From Treponema sp. (GTDB taxonomy: Bacteria; Spirochaetota; Spirochaetia; Treponematales; Treponemataceae): a stretch of DNA of 64,000 nt. The notes beneath the pieces are model-generated. The model was not told where the DNA came from and made no database searches. It saw only the letters and a program-made list of their open reading frames with translations. Each line of letters begins with the position of its first letter. Position 1 is the stretch's first letter. Location: the NCBI GenBank assembly GCA_024682655.1, contig JAIKYZ010000027.1, positions 1,071-65,070 on the forward strand, read 5' to 3'. Positions 5,877 through 56,854 of this stretch are shown here, in pieces. The position numbers were made by a program, and so were the translations under genes.

Positions 5877-7061
5877 ATGGCAAAGGAGAAGTTCGTTAGA
5901 ACTAAACCTCACATGAACGTTGGTACTATTGGTCACGTTGACCATGGTAAGACTACACTTTCTGCTGCTATCACTACATATTGTGGAAACAAATATGGTG
6001 ATAAAGTTCTTAAGTATGATGAAATTGATAACGCTCCAGAAGAGAAGGAACGTGGTATTACTATCAATACTCGTCACTTGGAATATCAGTCTGATAAGAG
6101 ACACTATGCTCATATCGACTGTCCAGGACATGCTGACTATATTAAGAACATGATTACTGGTGCTGCTCAGATGGATGGTTCTATCCTCGTAGTTTCTGCT
6201 CCAGATTCAGTTATGCCACAGACACGTGAACACTTGTTGCTCGCACGTCAGGTAGGTGTACCAAAGATCATCGTTTTCTTAAACAAAGTTGATATGGTTG
6301 ATGATCCTGATCTTCTTGAACTCGTAGTAGAAGAAGTAAAAGATACTATTAAAGAATATGGTTTCCAGGAAGACACTCCAATTATTAAGGGATCTGCTTT
6401 CAAAACATTGAACGACCCAGCTCCAGAAAACACAGCTTGTATCGAAGAACTTCTCCAGGCTATGGATACATGGTTTGATGATCCAGTTCGTGATGATCAG
6501 AAACCATTCTTGATGCCAATTGAAGACATCTTTACAATTTCAGGACGTGGTACTGTAGTAACAGGTAAGATCGAACGTGGTGTTGTAAATATGAACGATG
6601 CTGTACAGATCGTAGGTATCCGCCCAACAGCTGATACAACTGTAACAGGTATCGAAATGTTCCAGAAGACTCTTGATCAGGGTATGGCTGGTGATAACGT
6701 TGGTATCCTCCTTCGTGGTATTGAAAAGAAAGATGTTGTTCGCGGACAGGTTCTTGCTGCACCAAAATCTATCACTCCACACACAAAGTTCGAAGCTCAG
6801 ATTTACGTTCTTTCAAAGGAAGAAGGTGGACGTCACTCACCATTCTTCACTGGATATCGCCCACAGTTCTACTTCAGAACTACAGATATTACAGGAACTA
6901 TCGAACTTGAAGCTGGTACAGACATGGTAAAACCAGGTGATAACGTAAAAGTTATCGGTGAACTTATTCACCCTATCGCTATGGACGAAGGTCTTAAACT
7001 TGCTATCCGTGAAGGCGGTCACACAATCGCTTCTGGACAGGTAACAAAAATTATTGAATAG
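5877..7061 (+). CDS. tuf: elongation factor Tu
   Basis: [25 protein letters not shown]; SD AAGGAG. Confidence 0.99.
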
Positions 7062-49349: not shown

Positions 49350-51269
49350 ATGAAGAAGCCGGGAGAAAAAAGGTTAACCTTTGCAGTTTGTGTTTCTGGT
49401 TATAACTGGGAATGGGATTATAGAATTATTAATGGAATTCTTCGTAAATGTCAGAAAAATGATGTAAATCTTTTAATTTTTAATTCTCTTATGCTTAAAG
49501 GAGATTTTCCAAAAGGAATTGAGATAACAAAAAATCTTGTCCGTGGAGAATCAGAAATCTTTAATCTTATCAATTATGATTTGGTTGATGGAGTTATTCT
49601 TTTAGGAGACTCTATTTATCGAAGAAAATCAATTCAAGAAATCTCTGATAAATGTGATTTACATAAAATTCCCTGTATAAACATAAATGACGTACGTACA
49701 AAACTTAAACATAATGTTTATTTGGAAAACACTCATGCAATGGAGCTGGTAGTTGACCATCTTGTAAAGGTGCATAATTGCAAGAGAATCAATTTTATTG
49801 GTGGATATCCTGATAACAAAGAAACAATTGAACGCCTAGCTGCCTATAAAAAAATCCTTACAGAAAATAATATTCCAATTCAGGAAGAAAGAATTGATTA
49901 TGGTCATTTCTGGAAACATTCTGTTGAATGTGTTGAAAAAATGCTTGAATTTGATGTTCCGGAAGCAATTGTTTGTGCCAATGATACAATGGCAGTCTTA
50001 ATTTCTGATTATCTTAAAAACCGGGGATTTAAAATTCCTCAGGATATTATTATTACCGGTTTTGATGGAATTAATGATGCTTTTGCCTATCATCCTACTA
50101 TTACAACCGTTTCTTCAGATTTTGAAAGTACAGGTGCTAGAACTTATGAAATGATGGAAGAACTGATAAAGGGTAATAAGGATATTGGAGATATTACAAT
50201 TCAATCAGAATTAATTATTCAGGAATCTTGTGGTTGTATGCACTTACAAAAGGAAGAGCATAATTTTATAGACAGCCGTTATAACGAAAAGAATTTCACC
50301 CTGGATTTTAATAAGAGACTGGTAAAGACAAATATTTATATTTCAGATTCCAATACTTCTGATGAAATTTATTATCATCTTCTGTCAGGTGCCGAATCTT
50401 TTGGTTTTAAGAGATTTACTTTCTGTCTAAATGCAGATTTGGAAAATAGCAGTAAGTTTTTCTTTAGTAATAATGACCAGAATAATTATGGAATAGCTAA
50501 AAATCTTTTTGAAGTATATTTGGATGAAAACAGTAAGGTATGCCGTAAGGATTTTGAAGCTTCGCAATTGTTGTCTTATGATTTCTTAAATGGTCCTGAG
50601 CCTGTTGTAATGACTTTTTCTCCTTTGTATTACAAGACCTATTTTTTGGGCTATATGGCCTTTGAACCTGTAAAACTAAAACTTGAAGTAGATGGGGATT
50701 ATTTCTTTCTTTATTCTTTACAGGCCGCAAATGAAATTCAGAGTTTTTATGTAAAAAGAGAACTGGAAATTATAAACAAAATAGATTATATGACCGGGCT
50801 TTATAATCGTCGTGGAATGGATAAAGTTTGCAAAGATATTTTAGACGAATTGAAATATGAAAAAAAGCATCTTTATATGCTCTGTGCCGATATAGATAAT
50901 CTAAAAATTATTAACGATAAATATGGCCACGAAGCAGGGGATAGTGCAATTATCCAGATAGCATCAGCAATTAAAAAGGTTTTTGCAGATTATGCCTGTA
51001 TTAGAACTGGTGGAGATGAATTCTGCATAATTATAAGTGAAGACAAAAAAATCAACGTTGAAAAGATGATTAAAAAGGTGGACGAGGAATTAAAAATTTA
51101 TAATAAAAACAGTCAGCTACCTTACAGTCTTTTATGTAGTTGTGGTTATTATTCTCTTGATTCAGATAAATTTATCAGTTTTGAAGATATGCAGAACAAG
51201 GCAGATAGGAATTTATACGAGGTAAAGGCAAAGCATCATCAGAAAAAATTATTTGCCCCAAAAATCTAG
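49350..51269 (+). CDS. diguanylate cyclase with LacI-type sugar-binding sensor domain
   Basis: PEAIVCANDTMA, ITGFDG, PTITTV sensor motifs; DYMTGLYNRR, NDKYGHEAGD, RTGGDEF. Confidence 0.9.
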   Translation: MKKPGEKRLTFAVCVSGYNWEWDYRIINGILRKCQKNDVNLLIFNSLMLKGDFPKGIEITKNLVRGESEIFNLINYDLVDGVILLGDSIYRRKSIQEISDKCDLHKIPCININDVRTKLKHNVYLENTHAMELVVDHLVKVHNCKRINFIGGYPDNKETIERLAAYKKILTENNIPIQEERIDYGHFWKHSVECVEKMLEFDVPEAIVCANDTMAVLISDYLKNRGFKIPQDIIITGFDGINDAFAYHPTITTVSSDFESTGARTYEMMEELIKGNKDIGDITIQSELIIQESCGCMHLQKEEHNFIDSRYNEKNFTLDFNKRLVKTNIYISDSNTSDEIYYHLLSGAESFGFKRFTFCLNADLENSSKFFFSNNDQNNYGIAKNLFEVYLDENSKVCRKDFEASQLLSYDFLNGPEPVVMTFSPLYYKTYFLGYMAFEPVKLKLEVDGDYFFLYSLQAANEIQSFYVKRELEIINKIDYMTGLYNRRGMDKVCKDILDELKYEKKHLYMLCADIDNLKIINDKYGHEAGDSAIIQIASAIKKVFADYACIRTGGDEFCIIISEDKKINVEKMIKKVDEELKIYNKNSQLPYSLLCSCGYYSLDSDKFISFEDMQNKADRNLYEVKAKHHQKKLFAPKI

Positions 51270-51357: not shown

Positions 51358-52656
51358 ATGCCTTATACCGAGCCAACAAGTCTTGCGATTGTTGCCTGTC
51401 CTGGTGGCGAAGCTTTCGCCAATGAAGTCATAACGCACCTTAAACACATGTACAAACACCGCTTCACTTTGAAGAACGATGTTGTGTCAAAGCGTTATGA
51501 GCTGACTAAAGAAGAGCTTGTACAAAAGATTAATCTGCAGAACGATTTGCAGACTAGTGATGTTTGTATAAGAGGTGCTACTAATAAGTACAGACCGCCT
51601 GTATTCAAAGTTAATGCACGGTTTACTTATTTTGCTAATGGTGAGGTTAAGACCGAACTTTTAGACACTGTCCGTGGAAAAGATGTATTTATTTTCCAGG
51701 ATGTAGAAAACCACGAAGTTCTTGAATTGAACGGTGGTGCAAACAAAATCAGAATGACTGTAAACGATCATGTTATGTCATTACTGGTTACTATTGATGC
51801 TGTTCGTATGGCAGGTGCAGGAAATATTACACTTGTAGTTCCAGCCTATCCATATGCTCGCCAGCACAAAAGAAAGGGCCGCGAAGGACTTACAGCTAGT
51901 CTTTTAGGTCACATTTATGAAATGCAGAGCGTTTCTCGTATTATTACACTCGATTTACATTCCCGTGAAATTCCTAATGCATTCTCAAGATTAAATCTTG
52001 ATAATCTTCATGCAAGTTATCAGATTATCCGTGAATTGGGCAAAATCGTAGATTTAACTGGGCAGACAGAAGATATGGTTATTGTTTCTCCTGATACAGG
52101 TGCCATTGACCGTAATAAATTCTATGCTTCTGGTTTAAAACTCCCACTTGCTATGATTTACAAAGAGCGTGATTATTCTATCGTAACTCAGGATGCTCAC
52201 TCTACAAATATTAAATCTGTAAAACTTTTAGGAGATGTAAAGGGTAAGGTTGCATTCCTGGCTGATGATATGCTGGGTACAGGTGGAACTTTACTTAAAG
52301 CTATGTCTTTCTTAAAAGAACAGGGCGCTACAAAAGTTATTTGTGCAATTTCTCTTCCATTCTTTACAGGTGATGCAATTAAAAACTTTGATGAAGCTTA
52401 TGAAAAAGGACTTTTCTACAGAATCATCGGTACAAATGCAGTTTACCACGAAGAACTTTTAAACAGAGAATGGTACATTTCAACAGATGTAAGTGGTCTT
52501 TTTGCAAATGTAATTACAAGAATTCATTATAATCAGTCTTTAAGCGAACTTCTTGATAACCGTAATATTATCGAAAAGGTAGTAAAACAGAGTCCAGCAG
52601 GACAATCAAAAGTTGCTGCAAGTACAGACGAAAATGAAAAAAAGGAAGATAAATAG
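51358..52656 (+). CDS. prs: ribose-phosphate pyrophosphokinase, long variant
   Basis: FANGEVK, PYARQ, TLDLH, SPDTG, DDMLGTGGT. Confidence 0.9.
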   Translation: MPYTEPTSLAIVACPGGEAFANEVITHLKHMYKHRFTLKNDVVSKRYELTKEELVQKINLQNDLQTSDVCIRGATNKYRPPVFKVNARFTYFANGEVKTELLDTVRGKDVFIFQDVENHEVLELNGGANKIRMTVNDHVMSLLVTIDAVRMAGAGNITLVVPAYPYARQHKRKGREGLTASLLGHIYEMQSVSRIITLDLHSREIPNAFSRLNLDNLHASYQIIRELGKIVDLTGQTEDMVIVSPDTGAIDRNKFYASGLKLPLAMIYKERDYSIVTQDAHSTNIKSVKLLGDVKGKVAFLADDMLGTGGTLLKAMSFLKEQGATKVICAISLPFFTGDAIKNFDEAYEKGLFYRIIGTNAVYHEELLNREWYISTDVSGLFANVITRIHYNQSLSELLDNRNIIEKVVKQSPAGQSKVAASTDENEKKEDK

Positions 52657-52661
52657 GTCTG

Positions 52662-53807
52662 ATGACTGAAAGTGTCTTTGTCCTTGATATTGGAACGACT
52701 TCACTAAAGGCAGGATTAGTTTCTGCTGATGGTGAGGTCGTTTTTATTTTTAGAAAAAAGTATTTTGCTCCCCTTTCCCTTGATGTTTCAAAATATTGGT
52801 TATCGGCTTTTGACTTAGCTTTCCAAAAGGCTAAAAAATTTTCAAAAAAGCGGGATATTCAGATTAAGGCAATTTGCATTTCTGGAAACGGTCCTACAAT
52901 TGTCGATTGCCGGGGAAAAACTCTTTTATGGAATGGCAGTAATATTCCTCTTGAGCTCAAAGAAAAAGCCCGCCTGGAATTAGAAAAAATCAACCTGCAG
53001 TTAAAAGAAAAAAATATCCATTCTTTATTTCTTCCAAGAATATTATTATTTAAGGAAGTTTACAAAAATTCCTTTGATAAATCGTCTTATATTTTTTCGG
53101 GGCCTGAATATTTAATTTACAAATTAACCGGCCAGGCCCTTACAATTTTACCGGAAAAACGTTATCAAGCTGCCTATTGGGATTCGGCTCTTTTAGATTC
53201 TCTGGGCTTAGCGGCCGAAAAATTCCCTGCCTTTGTAAATACTGCTTCTTTGTCTGGATATTTTAAGGGCCTTCCAGTATTTGCCGGCGGGCCTGATTTT
53301 ATTGTCGCTTTAATTGGTACAAATACTTTAAGTCCAGGAAAAATCTGTGACAGGTCTGGTTCTTCAGAAGGAATTAATCTTTGTGTAAATAAAGAAATTC
53401 ACCGGGATGGCCTTAGAACTCTGCCTTCCCTTATTCCTGATTTGTGGAATTGCTCTGTTTTAATTCCAAATAGCAGTAAATTAAGGGAAAACGAAAGATT
53501 AGGTAAACTTAAAGAAGGTCTTAAACTTTTACAGGAGCTTTCAAAAGAAAATGATTTTGAATTCCCTCTGAAAATGAAAGTTACCGGAGGTCAGACTAAA
53601 AATTCCTTCTGGATGCAGAAAAAGGCTACATTTCTTGAGATGGAACTGGAAGTTTGCGATTGTCCGGATTCTGAACTTTTGGGGGACGCCTGTATAGCCT
53701 GGATGGGTCTTGGAAAATATCAGTCTTTAGGTCAGGCTGCCCAGGTTATTTCAAAAGTAGAAAGAAGTTACAAAGCCCAGACTGAGAAAAATTTGCTTAA
53801 GGACTAA
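52662..53807 (+). CDS. FGGY-family carbohydrate kinase, compact
   Basis: LDIGTTSLKA, AICISG, VTGGQTK, LLGDACIA. Confidence 0.8.
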   Translation: MTESVFVLDIGTTSLKAGLVSADGEVVFIFRKKYFAPLSLDVSKYWLSAFDLAFQKAKKFSKKRDIQIKAICISGNGPTIVDCRGKTLLWNGSNIPLELKEKARLELEKINLQLKEKNIHSLFLPRILLFKEVYKNSFDKSSYIFSGPEYLIYKLTGQALTILPEKRYQAAYWDSALLDSLGLAAEKFPAFVNTASLSGYFKGLPVFAGGPDFIVALIGTNTLSPGKICDRSGSSEGINLCVNKEIHRDGLRTLPSLIPDLWNCSVLIPNSSKLRENERLGKLKEGLKLLQELSKENDFEFPLKMKVTGGQTKNSFWMQKKATFLEMELEVCDCPDSELLGDACIAWMGLGKYQSLGQAAQVISKVERSYKAQTEKNLLKD

Positions 53808-53810
53808 ATT

Positions 53811-54464
53811 ATGACAGTTTATAAAATTCCTCAAAATCTAAAAGCAATTATTTTTGATATTGATTCAACTCTCTACACCAATTCTGCTTATGCTTTTGAA
53901 CAGGTTGATTGTCAGGTTAGACAGTATGCAAAAGAGATTGGAATTACTGCCGAAGAAGCTAGAAAAAAGGTCGCTGATTATAGAAAACTCTTTGCCCAGG
54001 AACATGAGGGAAAAAAAGTAAGTCTTGGAAATACCTTACTTGCCTTTGGAATTCCAATTGAAAAGAGTGTAGAGTGGAGAAAATCACTTTTAGAGCCTGC
54101 CAATTTTTTGAGCCGGGACCAAAAATTATTTGAAGAACTTAAAATCTTGCAAAAAGAATATAAATTGATTTGTGTTACAAATAATCCTGTTTTACCTGCC
54201 AGAAAAACTCTGGAGGCCCTGGGAATAAGTGAATTTTTCCCGGAAATTGTGGGATTAGATAGCTGTTTTAAATCAAAACCTGCCCTGGAACCTTTTATGA
54301 AAGCCTGCCAGATACTTGAATTAGAAGCCCAGAATTGTCTTGCTATTGGTGACCGTTATGATATGGATATTTCTCTGCCTCTTGAAATGGGTATGGGGGG
54401 AATTTTAGTAAAAGGGGTTAGTGAAATATATAATTTACATTCAATAATTTCCTTTAATGCATAA
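53811..54464 (+). CDS. HAD-superfamily hydrolase
   Basis: FDIDSTL motif I, VTNN, KP, IGDRYDMD. Confidence 0.9.
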   Translation: MTVYKIPQNLKAIIFDIDSTLYTNSAYAFEQVDCQVRQYAKEIGITAEEARKKVADYRKLFAQEHEGKKVSLGNTLLAFGIPIEKSVEWRKSLLEPANFLSRDQKLFEELKILQKEYKLICVTNNPVLPARKTLEALGISEFFPEIVGLDSCFKSKPALEPFMKACQILELEAQNCLAIGDRYDMDISLPLEMGMGGILVKGVSEIYNLHSIISFNA

Positions 54465-54491: not shown

Positions 54492-55331
54492 ATGGAAATC
54501 AAAGATTTTAGCGACAAGGTAGAATTTACCAATGATGGAAGGCTTTCTTTGTTTTTTGTGGGGACAGGATCAGCTTTTTCCAAGGAATTCTTTCAAAATA
54601 ATCTAATAATTGTAAAGGGAAAGGATCACATCTTGATTGACTGTGGAACTTTATTACCTTTTATATTAGAAGTTGCTTATCACACAAGTATATCTGAAAT
54701 AGAAAACGTTATTTTAACTCATCCACATGCAGACCATATTGGTGGAGTAGAAGAATTAATCTTAAACGGCAGATATGTTAAAAAATCTAAAATAAATATA
54801 ATTATAACCGACGAATTTAAAGAACTTTTGTGGGAACAAACTTTAAGGGGTGGTTGTCAGTATAGTGAAGACGGAAAAATGACTTTTGATGATTATTTTA
54901 ATCAGATTAAGCCTGCTGAAATTCCTGGAACTCCCTGGCCTATGTGGGAAGCAAATATTGGTTCTATAAATATTAAACTTTTCAGAAGTTTTCATGTTAC
55001 TACAATGCCTAATTCCTTTGAAAATTCACAGTTTTCTGTTGGTATGATTATTGATGATAGAATTTTATTCCCTGGCGATACTCAATTTAAGCCAGATCAG
55101 CTTGATTGGATTTTAAATCATTACAATATTGAATGTATTTTCCATGACTGCGATGTATCTGGTTTTAGCGAAGGAGTTCATGCTACTTATCAACAGTTAA
55201 AAACTCTTCCGGACGAGGTAAAGAAAAAAATGTATTTATGCCATTACAATAAAAGTGCCTGTAAAATCAATTCAAAGGCAGATGGATTTGCAGGTTTTGC
55301 TCGTAAAGGTAAGTATTATATTTTTGATTAA
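54492..55331 (+). CDS. MBL-fold metallohydrolase, Apyc1-like putative cyclic-nucleotide phosphodiesterase
   Basis: GTGSAFSK, LIDCG, THPHADHIGGVEE, FHV, GDT, FHDC, GVHA, LCHY. Confidence 0.8.
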   Translation: MEIKDFSDKVEFTNDGRLSLFFVGTGSAFSKEFFQNNLIIVKGKDHILIDCGTLLPFILEVAYHTSISEIENVILTHPHADHIGGVEELILNGRYVKKSKINIIITDEFKELLWEQTLRGGCQYSEDGKMTFDDYFNQIKPAEIPGTPWPMWEANIGSINIKLFRSFHVTTMPNSFENSQFSVGMIIDDRILFPGDTQFKPDQLDWILNHYNIECIFHDCDVSGFSEGVHATYQQLKTLPDEVKKKMYLCHYNKSACKINSKADGFAGFARKGKYYIFD

Positions 55332-55372
55332 TCAAAAATGGTAATAATAATTTAATAAAGATGGAGAAATAA

Positions 55373-56677
55373 ATGAAAAAAATTCTGATTGCATCTACAA
55401 ATGTTGGTGTAATTGATATTGTAAAAAGTGTCTGTAATAAATTTGCCTTATACTTTGATCCTATTTTTTGTCCTGATACAGAAGAAGCTTTAAGCTTTAT
55501 TGATTATGAAATTCCAGAAATTAAAATCCTTGATTTTACCAGTAGCACTATTGATTCTTTTAGGATTTTAAACGCAATCGATTCTGACCCTTGGCTTCAT
55601 AACGGTGGAATTATTGCAATTGTTAAAGATAAAAAAACTGTACAGGAATTTGAATCTAAGAAAAATCCTAATATCCTTGCAATTCAGGTAATTGAAGCTT
55701 TTAAAGAAAATTTTGAAAGACTTCTTAAGATTCTTTGGAATAATCAGCAGTTCCTTTTTAATCGAGGAATGCAGGAATCTATAAACGGTGTTGAAAAAGG
55801 AAAATTTATTTGTGGAAATGATCCTTTTGATATCCGAATGTATGCAAGTTTCCTGGTGAATTATTTATATTGTACAAACCGAATTGATGAAGATGGTCGT
55901 TATGCCCTTCAAACTACTTTTATGGAAATGCTTACAAACGCCCTTGAACACGGTAACTGTAATATTTCTTATGAAGAAAAAAGTAAGTGGTTGGAAAAGG
56001 GTGGAAATATTCTTGATTTAATTAAGGAAAAATCAAAAGACCCTGTGATTGGTGCTAAAAAAATCCACATTGAATATGTTATTGGAAAGGAAAAATCTAC
56101 TTTTACAATTACAGATGAAGGTGATGGTTTTGATTGGCGTTCAAGAGTTCAAAATGATGACTTTACAATGGAAACTCATGGACGTGGAATCTTTATGTCC
56201 AAAAATCTTGTTACAGGATTAACTTACAATGATAAGGGTAATCAAGTTTCTTTTGAAATACAAAATCTTATGAACGTTTCTAATAATGTTCCTTTGATTA
56301 TGTCTACCTTTGCAACTGTTCAATATACAAAACATCAGATTGTTTGCCGTCAGAATGAACCTTCAAATGATTTATTCTTTATTGTGTCGGGCCGATATGG
56401 AGTTTATGTGGATGGAAAATTACTTTCTGTTCTTACTCCAAAAGATATATTTATTGGCGAAATGGCCTTTCTTTTGAATGACCGTCGTTCAGCTACAATT
56501 ATGTCTGCTGGGCAGGGACAGTTGATTCGTATTCCTAAAGTTTCTTTCTTGAATCTTATTAGAAAAAATCCACACTATGGAATATTCCTTTCTAAACTTT
56601 TGGCTCAGAGAGTAACAAATCAAAATCGTAAAACAATTGAACTTTCCAACGAAATCCTGGAATTAAAAAATAAATAA
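55373..56677 (+). CDS. receiver-like + RsbW-type HATPase + cNMP-binding domain protein
   Basis: PEIKILD; EMLTNALEHGN, DEGDGFD, HGRGI, YNDKGN; FIGEMAFLLNDRRSAT. Confidence 0.85.
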   Translation: MKKILIASTNVGVIDIVKSVCNKFALYFDPIFCPDTEEALSFIDYEIPEIKILDFTSSTIDSFRILNAIDSDPWLHNGGIIAIVKDKKTVQEFESKKNPNILAIQVIEAFKENFERLLKILWNNQQFLFNRGMQESINGVEKGKFICGNDPFDIRMYASFLVNYLYCTNRIDEDGRYALQTTFMEMLTNALEHGNCNISYEEKSKWLEKGGNILDLIKEKSKDPVIGAKKIHIEYVIGKEKSTFTITDEGDGFDWRSRVQNDDFTMETHGRGIFMSKNLVTGLTYNDKGNQVSFEIQNLMNVSNNVPLIMSTFATVQYTKHQIVCRQNEPSNDLFFIVSGRYGVYVDGKLLSVLTPKDIFIGEMAFLLNDRRSATIMSAGQGQLIRIPKVSFLNLIRKNPHYGIFLSKLLAQRVTNQNRKTIELSNEILELKNK

Positions 56678-56694
56678 AAGGATTTAAGTTTAAA

Positions 56695-56736
56695 ATAAAA
56701 AAATCGGGACTTTATTAAAAGCCCCGATTTTTTTTT
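56695..56736. terminator. bidirectional terminator between the cNMP-kinase gene and the tRNA
   Basis: A-run, AATCGGG.CTTT/AAAG.CCCGATT stem, T-run. Confidence 0.85.
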
Positions 56737-56809
56737 GATCCTAATGCGAGTCGAACGCACGACCTTTCGCTTAGGAGGCGAATGCTCTATCCAGCTGAGC
56801 TACAGGATC
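56736..56809 (-). tRNA. tRNA-Arg(CCT)
   Basis: reverse complement GATCCTGTAGCTCAGCTGGATAGAGCATTCGCCTCCTAAGCGAAAGGTCGTGCGTTCGACTCGCATTAGGATCA folds to a cloverleaf, anticodon CCT; CCA not encoded. Confidence 0.96.
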
Positions 56810-56854
56810 AGATTTATTTAATATAGCAAAAAAACTATAAAAAATCTCGTAAAA

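Follow-up and report, generated by a model that had tools for sequence, protein, structure and literature searches.

An Apyc1-family phosphodiesterase gene and a gene for an LvrC-like, putatively cyclic-nucleotide-sensing regulator in Treponema: probable neighbours by rearrangement

A 64,000-nucleotide (nt) stretch of Treponema sp. DNA (assembly GCA_024682655.1, contig JAIKYZ010000027.1, positions 1,071 to 65,070 of the forward strand), hereafter the window, carries side by side two genes related to cyclic nucleotides. The first, P1, encodes a phosphodiesterase of the Apyc1 family, and the second, P2, encodes a protein in which a receiver-like domain, an RsbW-type domain and a domain binding cyclic nucleoside monophosphates (cNMPs) follow one another. 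A first-pass annotation of the window had proposed that the two genes form a two-gene module, with P1 as the eraser and P2 as the reader of one signal. Comparison of the neighbourhoods across Spirochaetota points in another direction. Probably P1 and P2 are two separately conserved spirochaete genes that became neighbours by one rearrangement, with P1 acting as a general phosphodiesterase and P2 as a cyclic AMP (cAMP)-sensing, LvrC-like protein, and with no dedicated module.

The family Treponemataceae was sampled with 151 evenly drawn genomes, which under-sampled the T. bryantii clade, and arrangements were counted in the 80 nearest P2 loci. In the 151-genome sample the adjacency was found two or three times and appeared near-unique to this genome, a view that was dropped after the 80-locus scan. 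Indeed, P1 is followed by a co-oriented P2 in 28 of the 80 loci, those of both T. bryantii strains included. A gene for the transfer RNA (tRNA) tRNA-Arg(CCT) stands in between in 24 of these 28 loci, and the two genes directly abut in the other four, with gaps of 18-27 nt. Six more of the 80 loci hold the same block with P1 cleanly missing, so that 10-293 nt separate P2 from the upstream HAD gene; two have P1 and P2 convergent with an NFACT gene between them; P2 lies elsewhere in 34; and the flank is too short for classification in ten. FTHFS follows P2 in 34/34 block loci, compared with the 28/34 in which P1 is present, and genes for pseudouridine synthase and citrate synthase also lie downstream in most of them. 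Conservation of the unrelated flank is therefore no lower than that of the P1-P2 pair. When P2 stands away from P1, its neighbours are housekeeping genes (NFACT/RqcH-like, isoamylase, TatD, PGK and XPB-type helicase), and a search for a conserved partner gene of P2 at 12 loci in Treponemataceae and 16 distant ones found none; in many Treponema P2 is followed by NFACT.

The junction itself carries traces of its history. In genomes without P2 at this locus, tRNA-Arg(CCT) lies between P1 and FTHFS, and the present genome and a few of its close relatives have the tRNA on the far side of P2, a shift that leaves P1 and P2 abutting. One sub-clade of block loci (L107-L111, L115, L120, L122, L124 and L126) has FTHFS inverted and co-oriented with P2, which again points to a junction that rearranges readily. 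In one locus (L020, genome G027) a tRNA-Arg-like gene at 6128-6260 is split by an insert of about 65 nt, with its 5' and 3' halves flanking the insert; it lies between P1 and P2, just upstream of an intact tRNA-Arg(CCT) at 6316-6391, and resembles a tRNA gene duplicated or disrupted when the junction was rearranged.

The 40 block-type sequences all group as a single clade in a tree of P2 (SH-aLRT 90), which implies that P2 arrived downstream of P1 a single time. Loci without P1 occur at no fewer than five separate places within this clade. None of the six P1-less genomes has a P1 homologue anywhere, and four control genomes have one each; genome-wide loss of P1 with retention of P2 has taken place at least five times. 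The reverse is seen in G129, which keeps P1, the tRNA and FTHFS in order, has no P2 genome-wide, and carries the closest P1 of the evenly drawn family sample (66% identity). In that sample the co-occurrence of the two genes is negative if anything (odds ratio 0.51, p 0.07), and joint gain and loss of P1 and P2 is not observed. P2 is retained in many P1-less lineages, such as T. denticola-type genomes and a genome of 1.14 megabases (Mb), and thus clearly works without P1. Outside the family both genes are widespread: P1 occurs in 98 of 301 genomes, and full-length orthologues of P2, with 29-44% identity, in many spirochaete families. The two are never adjacent there, each standing alone in the 16 loci examined. 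The gene-neighbourhood check proposed in the first-pass annotation, when run across Spirochaetota, thus found the pair syntenic only inside one sub-genus clade and unlinked elsewhere. With a single origin, a tRNA gene in between in most loci and repeated losses of one gene, a dedicated and conserved two-gene module is not borne out.

The most stable association of P1 lies on its other side. Of 18 Treponemataceae loci other than that of the window, 16, spread over eight genera, have P1 co-oriented with and downstream of prs and of FGGY and/or HAD genes. In the block-type loci, too, prs lies upstream of P1 wherever the flank is long enough, and FGGY and HAD keep their positions, HAD directly ahead of P1. 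The identity of P1 as an Apyc1-like protein, already recognised in the annotation, is well founded, as it matches the Pfam profile PF23023 (Anti-Pycsar protein Apyc1) with 106.7 bits (cut-off 50) over profile positions 4-246 of 250, and the solved Apyc1 structures 7T28, 7U2R and 7U2S with E values from 1.5e-35 to 1.8e-30. The full di-metal site of the metallo-beta-lactamase (MBL) fold is present (H77xH79xD81H82, H168, D196 and H251); it is invariant in 19 orthologues and its residues align to 7T28 and 7U2R. No signal peptide was seen by eye. RNase Z and PhnP were ruled out as identities of P1, with scores far under the cut-off and coverage of the HxHxDH region alone. By analogy with family members that have intact loops and cleave cNMPs, P1 is most likely a cytoplasmic zinc-dependent MBL phosphodiesterase that hydrolyses 3',5'-cNMPs to 5'-NMPs. 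It is single-copy among the Apyc1-type genes of the genome, other known phosphodiesterase classes not having been searched for. Because this sole Apyc1-type gene stands beside ten class III cyclases and seven cNMP-binding proteins, P1 is most likely the general cAMP phosphodiesterase of the cell. Tandem-duplicated P1-type genes were seen in several non-Treponema spirochaetes (G254:C21, G299:C68, G358:C52, G371:C9, G396:C121 and G400:C5).

The broad hydrolysis of cAMP, cGMP, cCMP and cUMP by Apyc1 depends on an Apyc1-specific loop. In particular, bacterial homologues with intact loops cleave all four cNMPs, while those with altered loops cleave them weakly or not at all (PMC11724313). More than 80% of the Apyc1 genes detected are chromosomal and non-mobile (Hobbs et al. 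2022, PMC9117128; Tesson et al. 2024, PMC11724313), and the chromosomal homologues have been proposed as regulators of housekeeping cAMP (PMC11724313). P1 resembles the latter in its match to PF23023, in its full HxHxDH/H/D/H site and in its non-mobile chromosomal region. It differs from the solved Apyc1 proteins in being about 30 residues longer, with extra residues in the 120-165 region relative to 7U2R, and from known Apyc1 genes in closing a prs-FGGY-HAD operon, which to our knowledge is a setting not reported so far. As the last gene of a core operon (prs-FGGY-HAD-P1) conserved in eight genera, P1 does not have the setting of a phage or prophage anti-Pycsar gene. Its phage homologues come only from Bacillus, Staphylococcus and Psychrobacillus phages and share 31-34% identity with it. 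The further suggestion that P1 represents the cellular source from which phages took Apyc1 is already in print for the family, in the form of the cellular origin of phage Apyc1 and the likely ancestral status of the chromosomal homologues (PMC9117128; PMC11724313). It is not specific to the present lineage, which nothing marks as the donor. There is no cyclase on the contig of the window, and so no locus of PycC plus effector on it, a genome-wide Pycsar scan not having been made. P2 gave PADLOC matches to PycTIR/PycC, an identity that was ruled out since the match covers the generic cNMP-binding region only.

P2 had been described as a fusion of receiver (REC), HATPase and cNMP domains, an assignment that holds through Pfam for the last two and through the fold only for the first. 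The HATPase_c_2 domain is detected at residues 155-294 (PF13581, 43.1 bits, cut-off 27.4) and the cNMP-binding domain at residues 316-399 (PF00027, 64.8 bits, cut-off 27.5). Pfam Response_reg is absent from the N-terminus even at E<=10, and a phmmer search with this region returned only response regulators, at E 0.03-1.3. A confident AlphaFold model built from 16 orthologues (pLDDT 83.8, pTM 0.80) has three parts: a (beta-alpha)5 CheY-like domain at residues 1-123, a Bergerat ATPase in the middle, and a CRP-like cNMP barrel with a helix at residues 400-433. The top Foldseek match is 9QIH, the Leptospira protein LvrC (E 6e-16, about 305 columns over the receiver and Bergerat domains), and the C-terminal domain resembles the cNMP-binding domains of CRP/CAP with a root-mean-square deviation of about 2 A. 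The 9QIH chain, named 'SenB' by its depositor under an entry title that gives LvrC, also matches the Bergerat region of P2 by sequence (E 2e-11); a literature search on 'SenB' yielded nothing relevant.

Across 16 orthologues the ATP-binding boxes are invariant (N-box E185/N189/H193/G194; G1 D248xG250xG252; G2 H269-G270-x-G272), as is the phosphate-binding cassette G362-E363...R372-S373-A374, whose G-E...R-S-A pattern stays invariant down to 29% identity. In the receiver-like domain, D54 is invariant and aligns to the phospho-Asp of response regulators, while the canonical VDDE is aligned to ASTN, so that the acidic Mg2+-binding pair is lost and replaced by Ser-Thr, and there is no conserved Lys after beta5 in the 16 orthologues. 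Judged by what is known of CheY-type receivers, the domain looks like a degenerate pseudo-receiver. From its canonical cassette, P2 probably binds cAMP; by analogy with RsbW, LvrC and CRP, it probably also dimerises. The intact cassette and ATP boxes accordingly support the prediction of P2 as a cyclic-nucleotide reader whose output is an RsbW-type kinase or anti-sigma domain. In one genome, 99% complete, the P2 orthologue (G005:C56:11177-12374) is a fragmented pseudogene that carries TGA, TAG and TAA stops.

Among characterised proteins, P2 is closest to LvrC, a REC-Bergerat anti-sigma-type response regulator of Leptospira interrogans (LIC11110, PDB 9QIH), which was published in 2026 as the first structure of its class and has been tied to the control of virulence genes in Leptospira (PMC13269768). 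Both are spirochaete proteins in which an N-terminal receiver fold is fused to an RsbW/SpoIIAB-type Bergerat domain, and both are presumably homodimeric, nucleotide-binding regulators of anti-sigma type. P2 differs in its additional C-terminal CRP-like cNMP domain and helix and in an identity of about 20%; moreover, the receiver of LvrC is canonical and phosphorylated by LvrB, whereas that of P2 has no acidic pair and is not seen by Pfam REC. With RsbW and SpoIIAB, P2 shares an HATPase_c_2 domain with N, G1 and G2 boxes, and its genome also encodes STAS and PP2C proteins. However, it is three times larger, has two sensory domains and is never beside a STAS, PP2C or sigma-factor gene in the loci examined. 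The cNMP domain is similar to those of CRP/CAP and of the PKA/PKG type in its beta-barrel fold, its G-E...R-S-A cassette and its C-helix, but its output is an RsbW-type domain and not a DNA-binding domain or a eukaryotic-type kinase. Neither the architecture of P2 nor any relevant fusion of RsbW and cNMP domains turned up in the literature that could be searched. With its LvrC-like build and added cNMP domain, P2 represents an uncharacterised spirochaete-wide regulator and the part of this locus worth following up.

The rest of the genome also speaks for two members of a larger network. Profile searches of the 2.74-Mb Treponema assembly detected ten class III cyclases, five STAS proteins and six PP2C/SpoIIE phosphatases, and seven cNMP-binding proteins are encoded; P1 is thus a single eraser serving an extensive cAMP network, and P2 only one of its seven readers. 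The canonical PP2C-STAS-RsbW cluster is on another contig (C29), away from P2. In agreement with the annotation, which had noted no cyclase, STAS protein or PP2C phosphatase in the window, there is no class III cyclase, STAS or PP2C match on the contig of the window (C70). Likewise, P2 is next to no STAS or PP2C gene in 28 loci across the phylum (12 in Treponemataceae and 16 distant). The Treponemataceae genomes checked have three STAS proteins and a single canonical RsbW that adjoins one of them. Orphan STAS proteins with no adjacent kinase, of about 185-190 and about 110 residues, are found in this genome and in six others checked, and they are candidate partners of P2, a lead and not a result. 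The STAS family of about 185-190 residues (G000 C13:32835-33146, G000 C60:5474-5794, G024 C1:242419-242736 and G016 C1:597906-598208) is conserved without an adjacent kinase in every Treponemataceae genome checked, including the one of 1.14 Mb. Distant P2 orthologues have a class III cyclase-like gene as immediate neighbour in two of 16 loci (L062 6185-7777; L071 6653-9799), which is slightly above our chance expectation.

In the mechanism that we propose, a single rearrangement in the ancestor of T. bryantii-type gut/rumen Treponema would have placed P2 beside P1 at a tRNA-marked site downstream of the prs operon, and the arrangement would then have been inherited within the syntenic block. 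P1 would trim the general cAMP pool by hydrolysing 3',5'-cNMPs to 5'-NMPs, while P2 would bind cAMP via its CRP-like domain with a dimerisation-type C-helix. Binding may in turn alter the sequestration of a sigma factor by the RsbW-like domain and/or the phosphorylation of an orphan STAS protein. Any coupling between P1 and P2 would go through the shared cAMP pool.

In the window, the two genes are adjacent and co-oriented as first described, with a single terminator after them (Table 1). The spacer between them contains a Shine-Dalgarno sequence (GGAG at 55363-55366, six nt ahead of the ATG of P2); no hairpin was seen in it, and a terminator scan gave no terminator-like site. Downstream of P2, a hairpin with a fold energy of -20.8 kcal/mol (z = -5.13; 0/200 shuffles fold as well) was missed by the consensus terminator scanner owing to its loop. 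As it overlaps the 3' end of the minus-strand tRNA-Arg(CCT), it is probably a bidirectional terminator shared by P2 and the tRNA. The tight co-directional spacing runs on upstream of P1 (prs, 5 nt, FGGY, 3 nt, HAD, 27 nt, P1, 41 nt, P2), and the terminator therefore closes a cluster of at least five genes, not two. In this genome P1 and P2 thus probably close a single transcription unit, prs-FGGY-HAD-P1-P2. An NCBIfam search with the FGGY gene returned no equivalog at its cut-off, and the HAD protein resembles pyrimidine 5'-nucleotidase weakly, with an NCBIfam score below threshold. Farther upstream, 88 nt ahead of prs, lies a gene for a GGDEF diguanylate cyclase, which is also found upstream in several relatives (L092, L154 and L155); this cyclic di-GMP gene may stand at the head of the same transcription unit as the prs cluster. 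Another of the seven cNMP readers, with two tandem PF00027 domains, is encoded within the window as well.

Table 1. Positions of P1, P2, their domains and nearby features in the window
Feature	Position	Strand	Basis
prs (phosphoribosyl pyrophosphate synthetase)	51358..52656	+	NCBIfam NF005299, 465.8 bits (cut-off 327); Pfam Pribosyltran_N/Pribosyltran
Short FGGY-family carbohydrate kinase-like gene	52662..53807	+	Pfam FGGY_N and FGGY_C
HAD-IA hydrolase gene	53811..54464	+	Pfam Hydrolase/HAD_2
P1, Apyc1-family MBL-fold phosphodiesterase, 279 residues	54492..55331	+	PF23023
P1-P2 spacer, 41 nt	55332..55372	+	Sequence reading
P2, receiver-like, RsbW-type and cNMP-binding domains, 434 residues	55373..56677	+	Open reading frame, Pfam and fold
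P2 residues 1-123, receiver-like (beta-alpha)5 domain, probably pseudo-receiver	55373..55741	+	AlphaFold secondary structure
P2 residues ~141-297, RsbW/SpoIIAB-type Bergerat ATPase/kinase (HATPase_c_2)	55793..56263	+	PF13581
P2 residues ~303-434, cNMP-binding domain and long C-terminal helix	56279..56674	+	PF00027
Hairpin and T-run (A-run on the other side)	~56697..56737	.	Fold energy
tRNA-Arg(CCT)	56735..56810	-	ARAGORN
GGDEF diguanylate cyclase with LacI-type periplasmic-binding-fold sensor	49350..51269	+	
cNMP-binding protein, 396 residues	24468..25658	-	Two tandem PF00027 domains

Several observations nevertheless weigh against neighbourhood by rearrangement without a module. Co-occurrence across the phylum sample is positive (odds ratio 2.6, p 0.009, uncorrected for phylogeny), a value that large clades lacking both genes may inflate. 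Members of the T. bryantii-type clade keep the arrangement even where P2 identity has fallen to about 56%, and the convergent juxtaposition in G080 and G100, with NFACT in between, is a second and independent one; two landings of P2 beside the only Apyc1-like gene of a genome exceed naive chance. In addition, many loci have P1-tRNA-P2 gaps of just 102-150 nt, which leave little room for separate promoters, so that co-transcription may be the rule in the clade. These points would suit a dedicated reader/eraser module, in which P1 locally erases the cNMP of P2, the pair is selected as a unit and the output is Ser/Thr phosphorylation of a STAS protein. The short spacer with its Shine-Dalgarno sequence and no terminator, the P1>P2 order shared by the 28 loci, T. 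bryantii included, the second juxtaposition, the cleavage of cNMPs by the family of P1 (PMC11724313) and the intact cNMP cassette of P2 would be expected under it. Yet the arrangement has a single origin, mostly with a tRNA gene between P1 and P2, and the unrelated flanking genes are conserved equally or better. P1 has repeatedly been lost genome-wide with P2 kept, and P2 once with P1 kept (G129). Both genes are phylum-wide yet unlinked outside the clade, and P1 is the sole such phosphodiesterase for all the cyclases and cNMP-binding proteins of the genome. A dedicated module is for these reasons quite improbable.

Two other explanations, each unlikely though a little less so, concern one gene at a time. 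P1 could be mainly a metabolic phosphodiesterase that works with prs, FGGY and HAD in the salvage of 5'-NMPs or on some other cyclic or diester phosphate, which would make the adjacency of P2 functionally meaningless. The prs-FGGY-HAD-P1 order with gaps of 3-27 nt, the weak, sub-threshold nucleotidase likeness of HAD and the poor cleavage of cNMPs by some loop-altered homologues (PMC11724313) favour this possibility, while the best matches of P1 are enzymes shown to cleave cNMPs, no linkage to prs, FGGY or HAD exists in 16 loci outside Treponemataceae, and no specific pathway fits an FGGY kinase together with P1. Moreover, the genome needs a cAMP phosphodiesterase, the other known classes of which were not searched for in it. 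As to P2, there is a similarly small chance that it acts solely as an anti-sigma factor, like LvrC, and neither as a kinase nor in partner switching, with D54 phosphorylated by a histidine kinase and with a cNMP domain that serves a structural role or has a ligand other than a cNMP. LvrC as the top structural match over REC and Bergerat domains, the invariant D54 at the phospho-Asp position and the lack of a STAS gene beside P2 in the 28 loci examined in detail are in line with it. The change of the acidic pair to Ser-Thr, the missing Lys after beta5 and the failure of Pfam REC to detect the domain are not, nor are the intact ATP-binding boxes, and a cassette invariant down to such low identity argues for real cNMP binding. 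Separately conserved P1 and P2 brought together by one rearrangement thus remain the preferred explanation, and the case cautions against reading a module into tight spacing seen in a single genome.

Beyond the locus, the conserved prs-FGGY-HAD-Apyc1-like operon provides a new context for chromosomal Apyc1 homologues, and P2 represents a phylum-wide, motif-intact link between a cNMP sensor and an RsbW/LvrC-type domain, which T. pallidum and T. denticola-type genomes probably share. A cAMP-gated relative of LvrC would provide a testable link between cAMP and the control of sigma factors in bacteria of which the regulation is still poorly known. A bolder and rather doubtful extension is that the whole P2 family, of the TP0995 type, works as a direct cAMP-gated sigma-factor switch across Spirochaetota, with feedback by P1 in the T. 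bryantii clade. If so, cAMP would control transcription without CRP, via an orphan STAS protein or a sigma factor, in the agent of syphilis included, and joint transcription of P2 with the sole Apyc1-type phosphodiesterase gene would, in the T. bryantii clade, provide a negative feedback loop acting on cAMP as well. T. pallidum TP0995, annotated as 'cyclic nucleotide binding protein', is the likely P2 orthologue, with 44% identity over its full length; only this genome annotation and no functional study of it was found. In parallel, the P2 orthologue of the 1.14-Mb single-contig genome is an open reading frame of 446 amino acids that agrees with TP0995 in position and size, in a genome without P1. 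The HATPase Pfam model misses this orthologue at E<=0.01, and a weak RsbW-type candidate of 159 amino acids is present in the same genome. Finally, the LvrC-type architecture, with a receiver-like domain and an HATPase and without a cNMP domain, was observed in proteins of 305-319 amino acids from other spirochaete families (G167:C4, G203:C108, G247:C16, G268:C77, G288:C147 and G293:C142).

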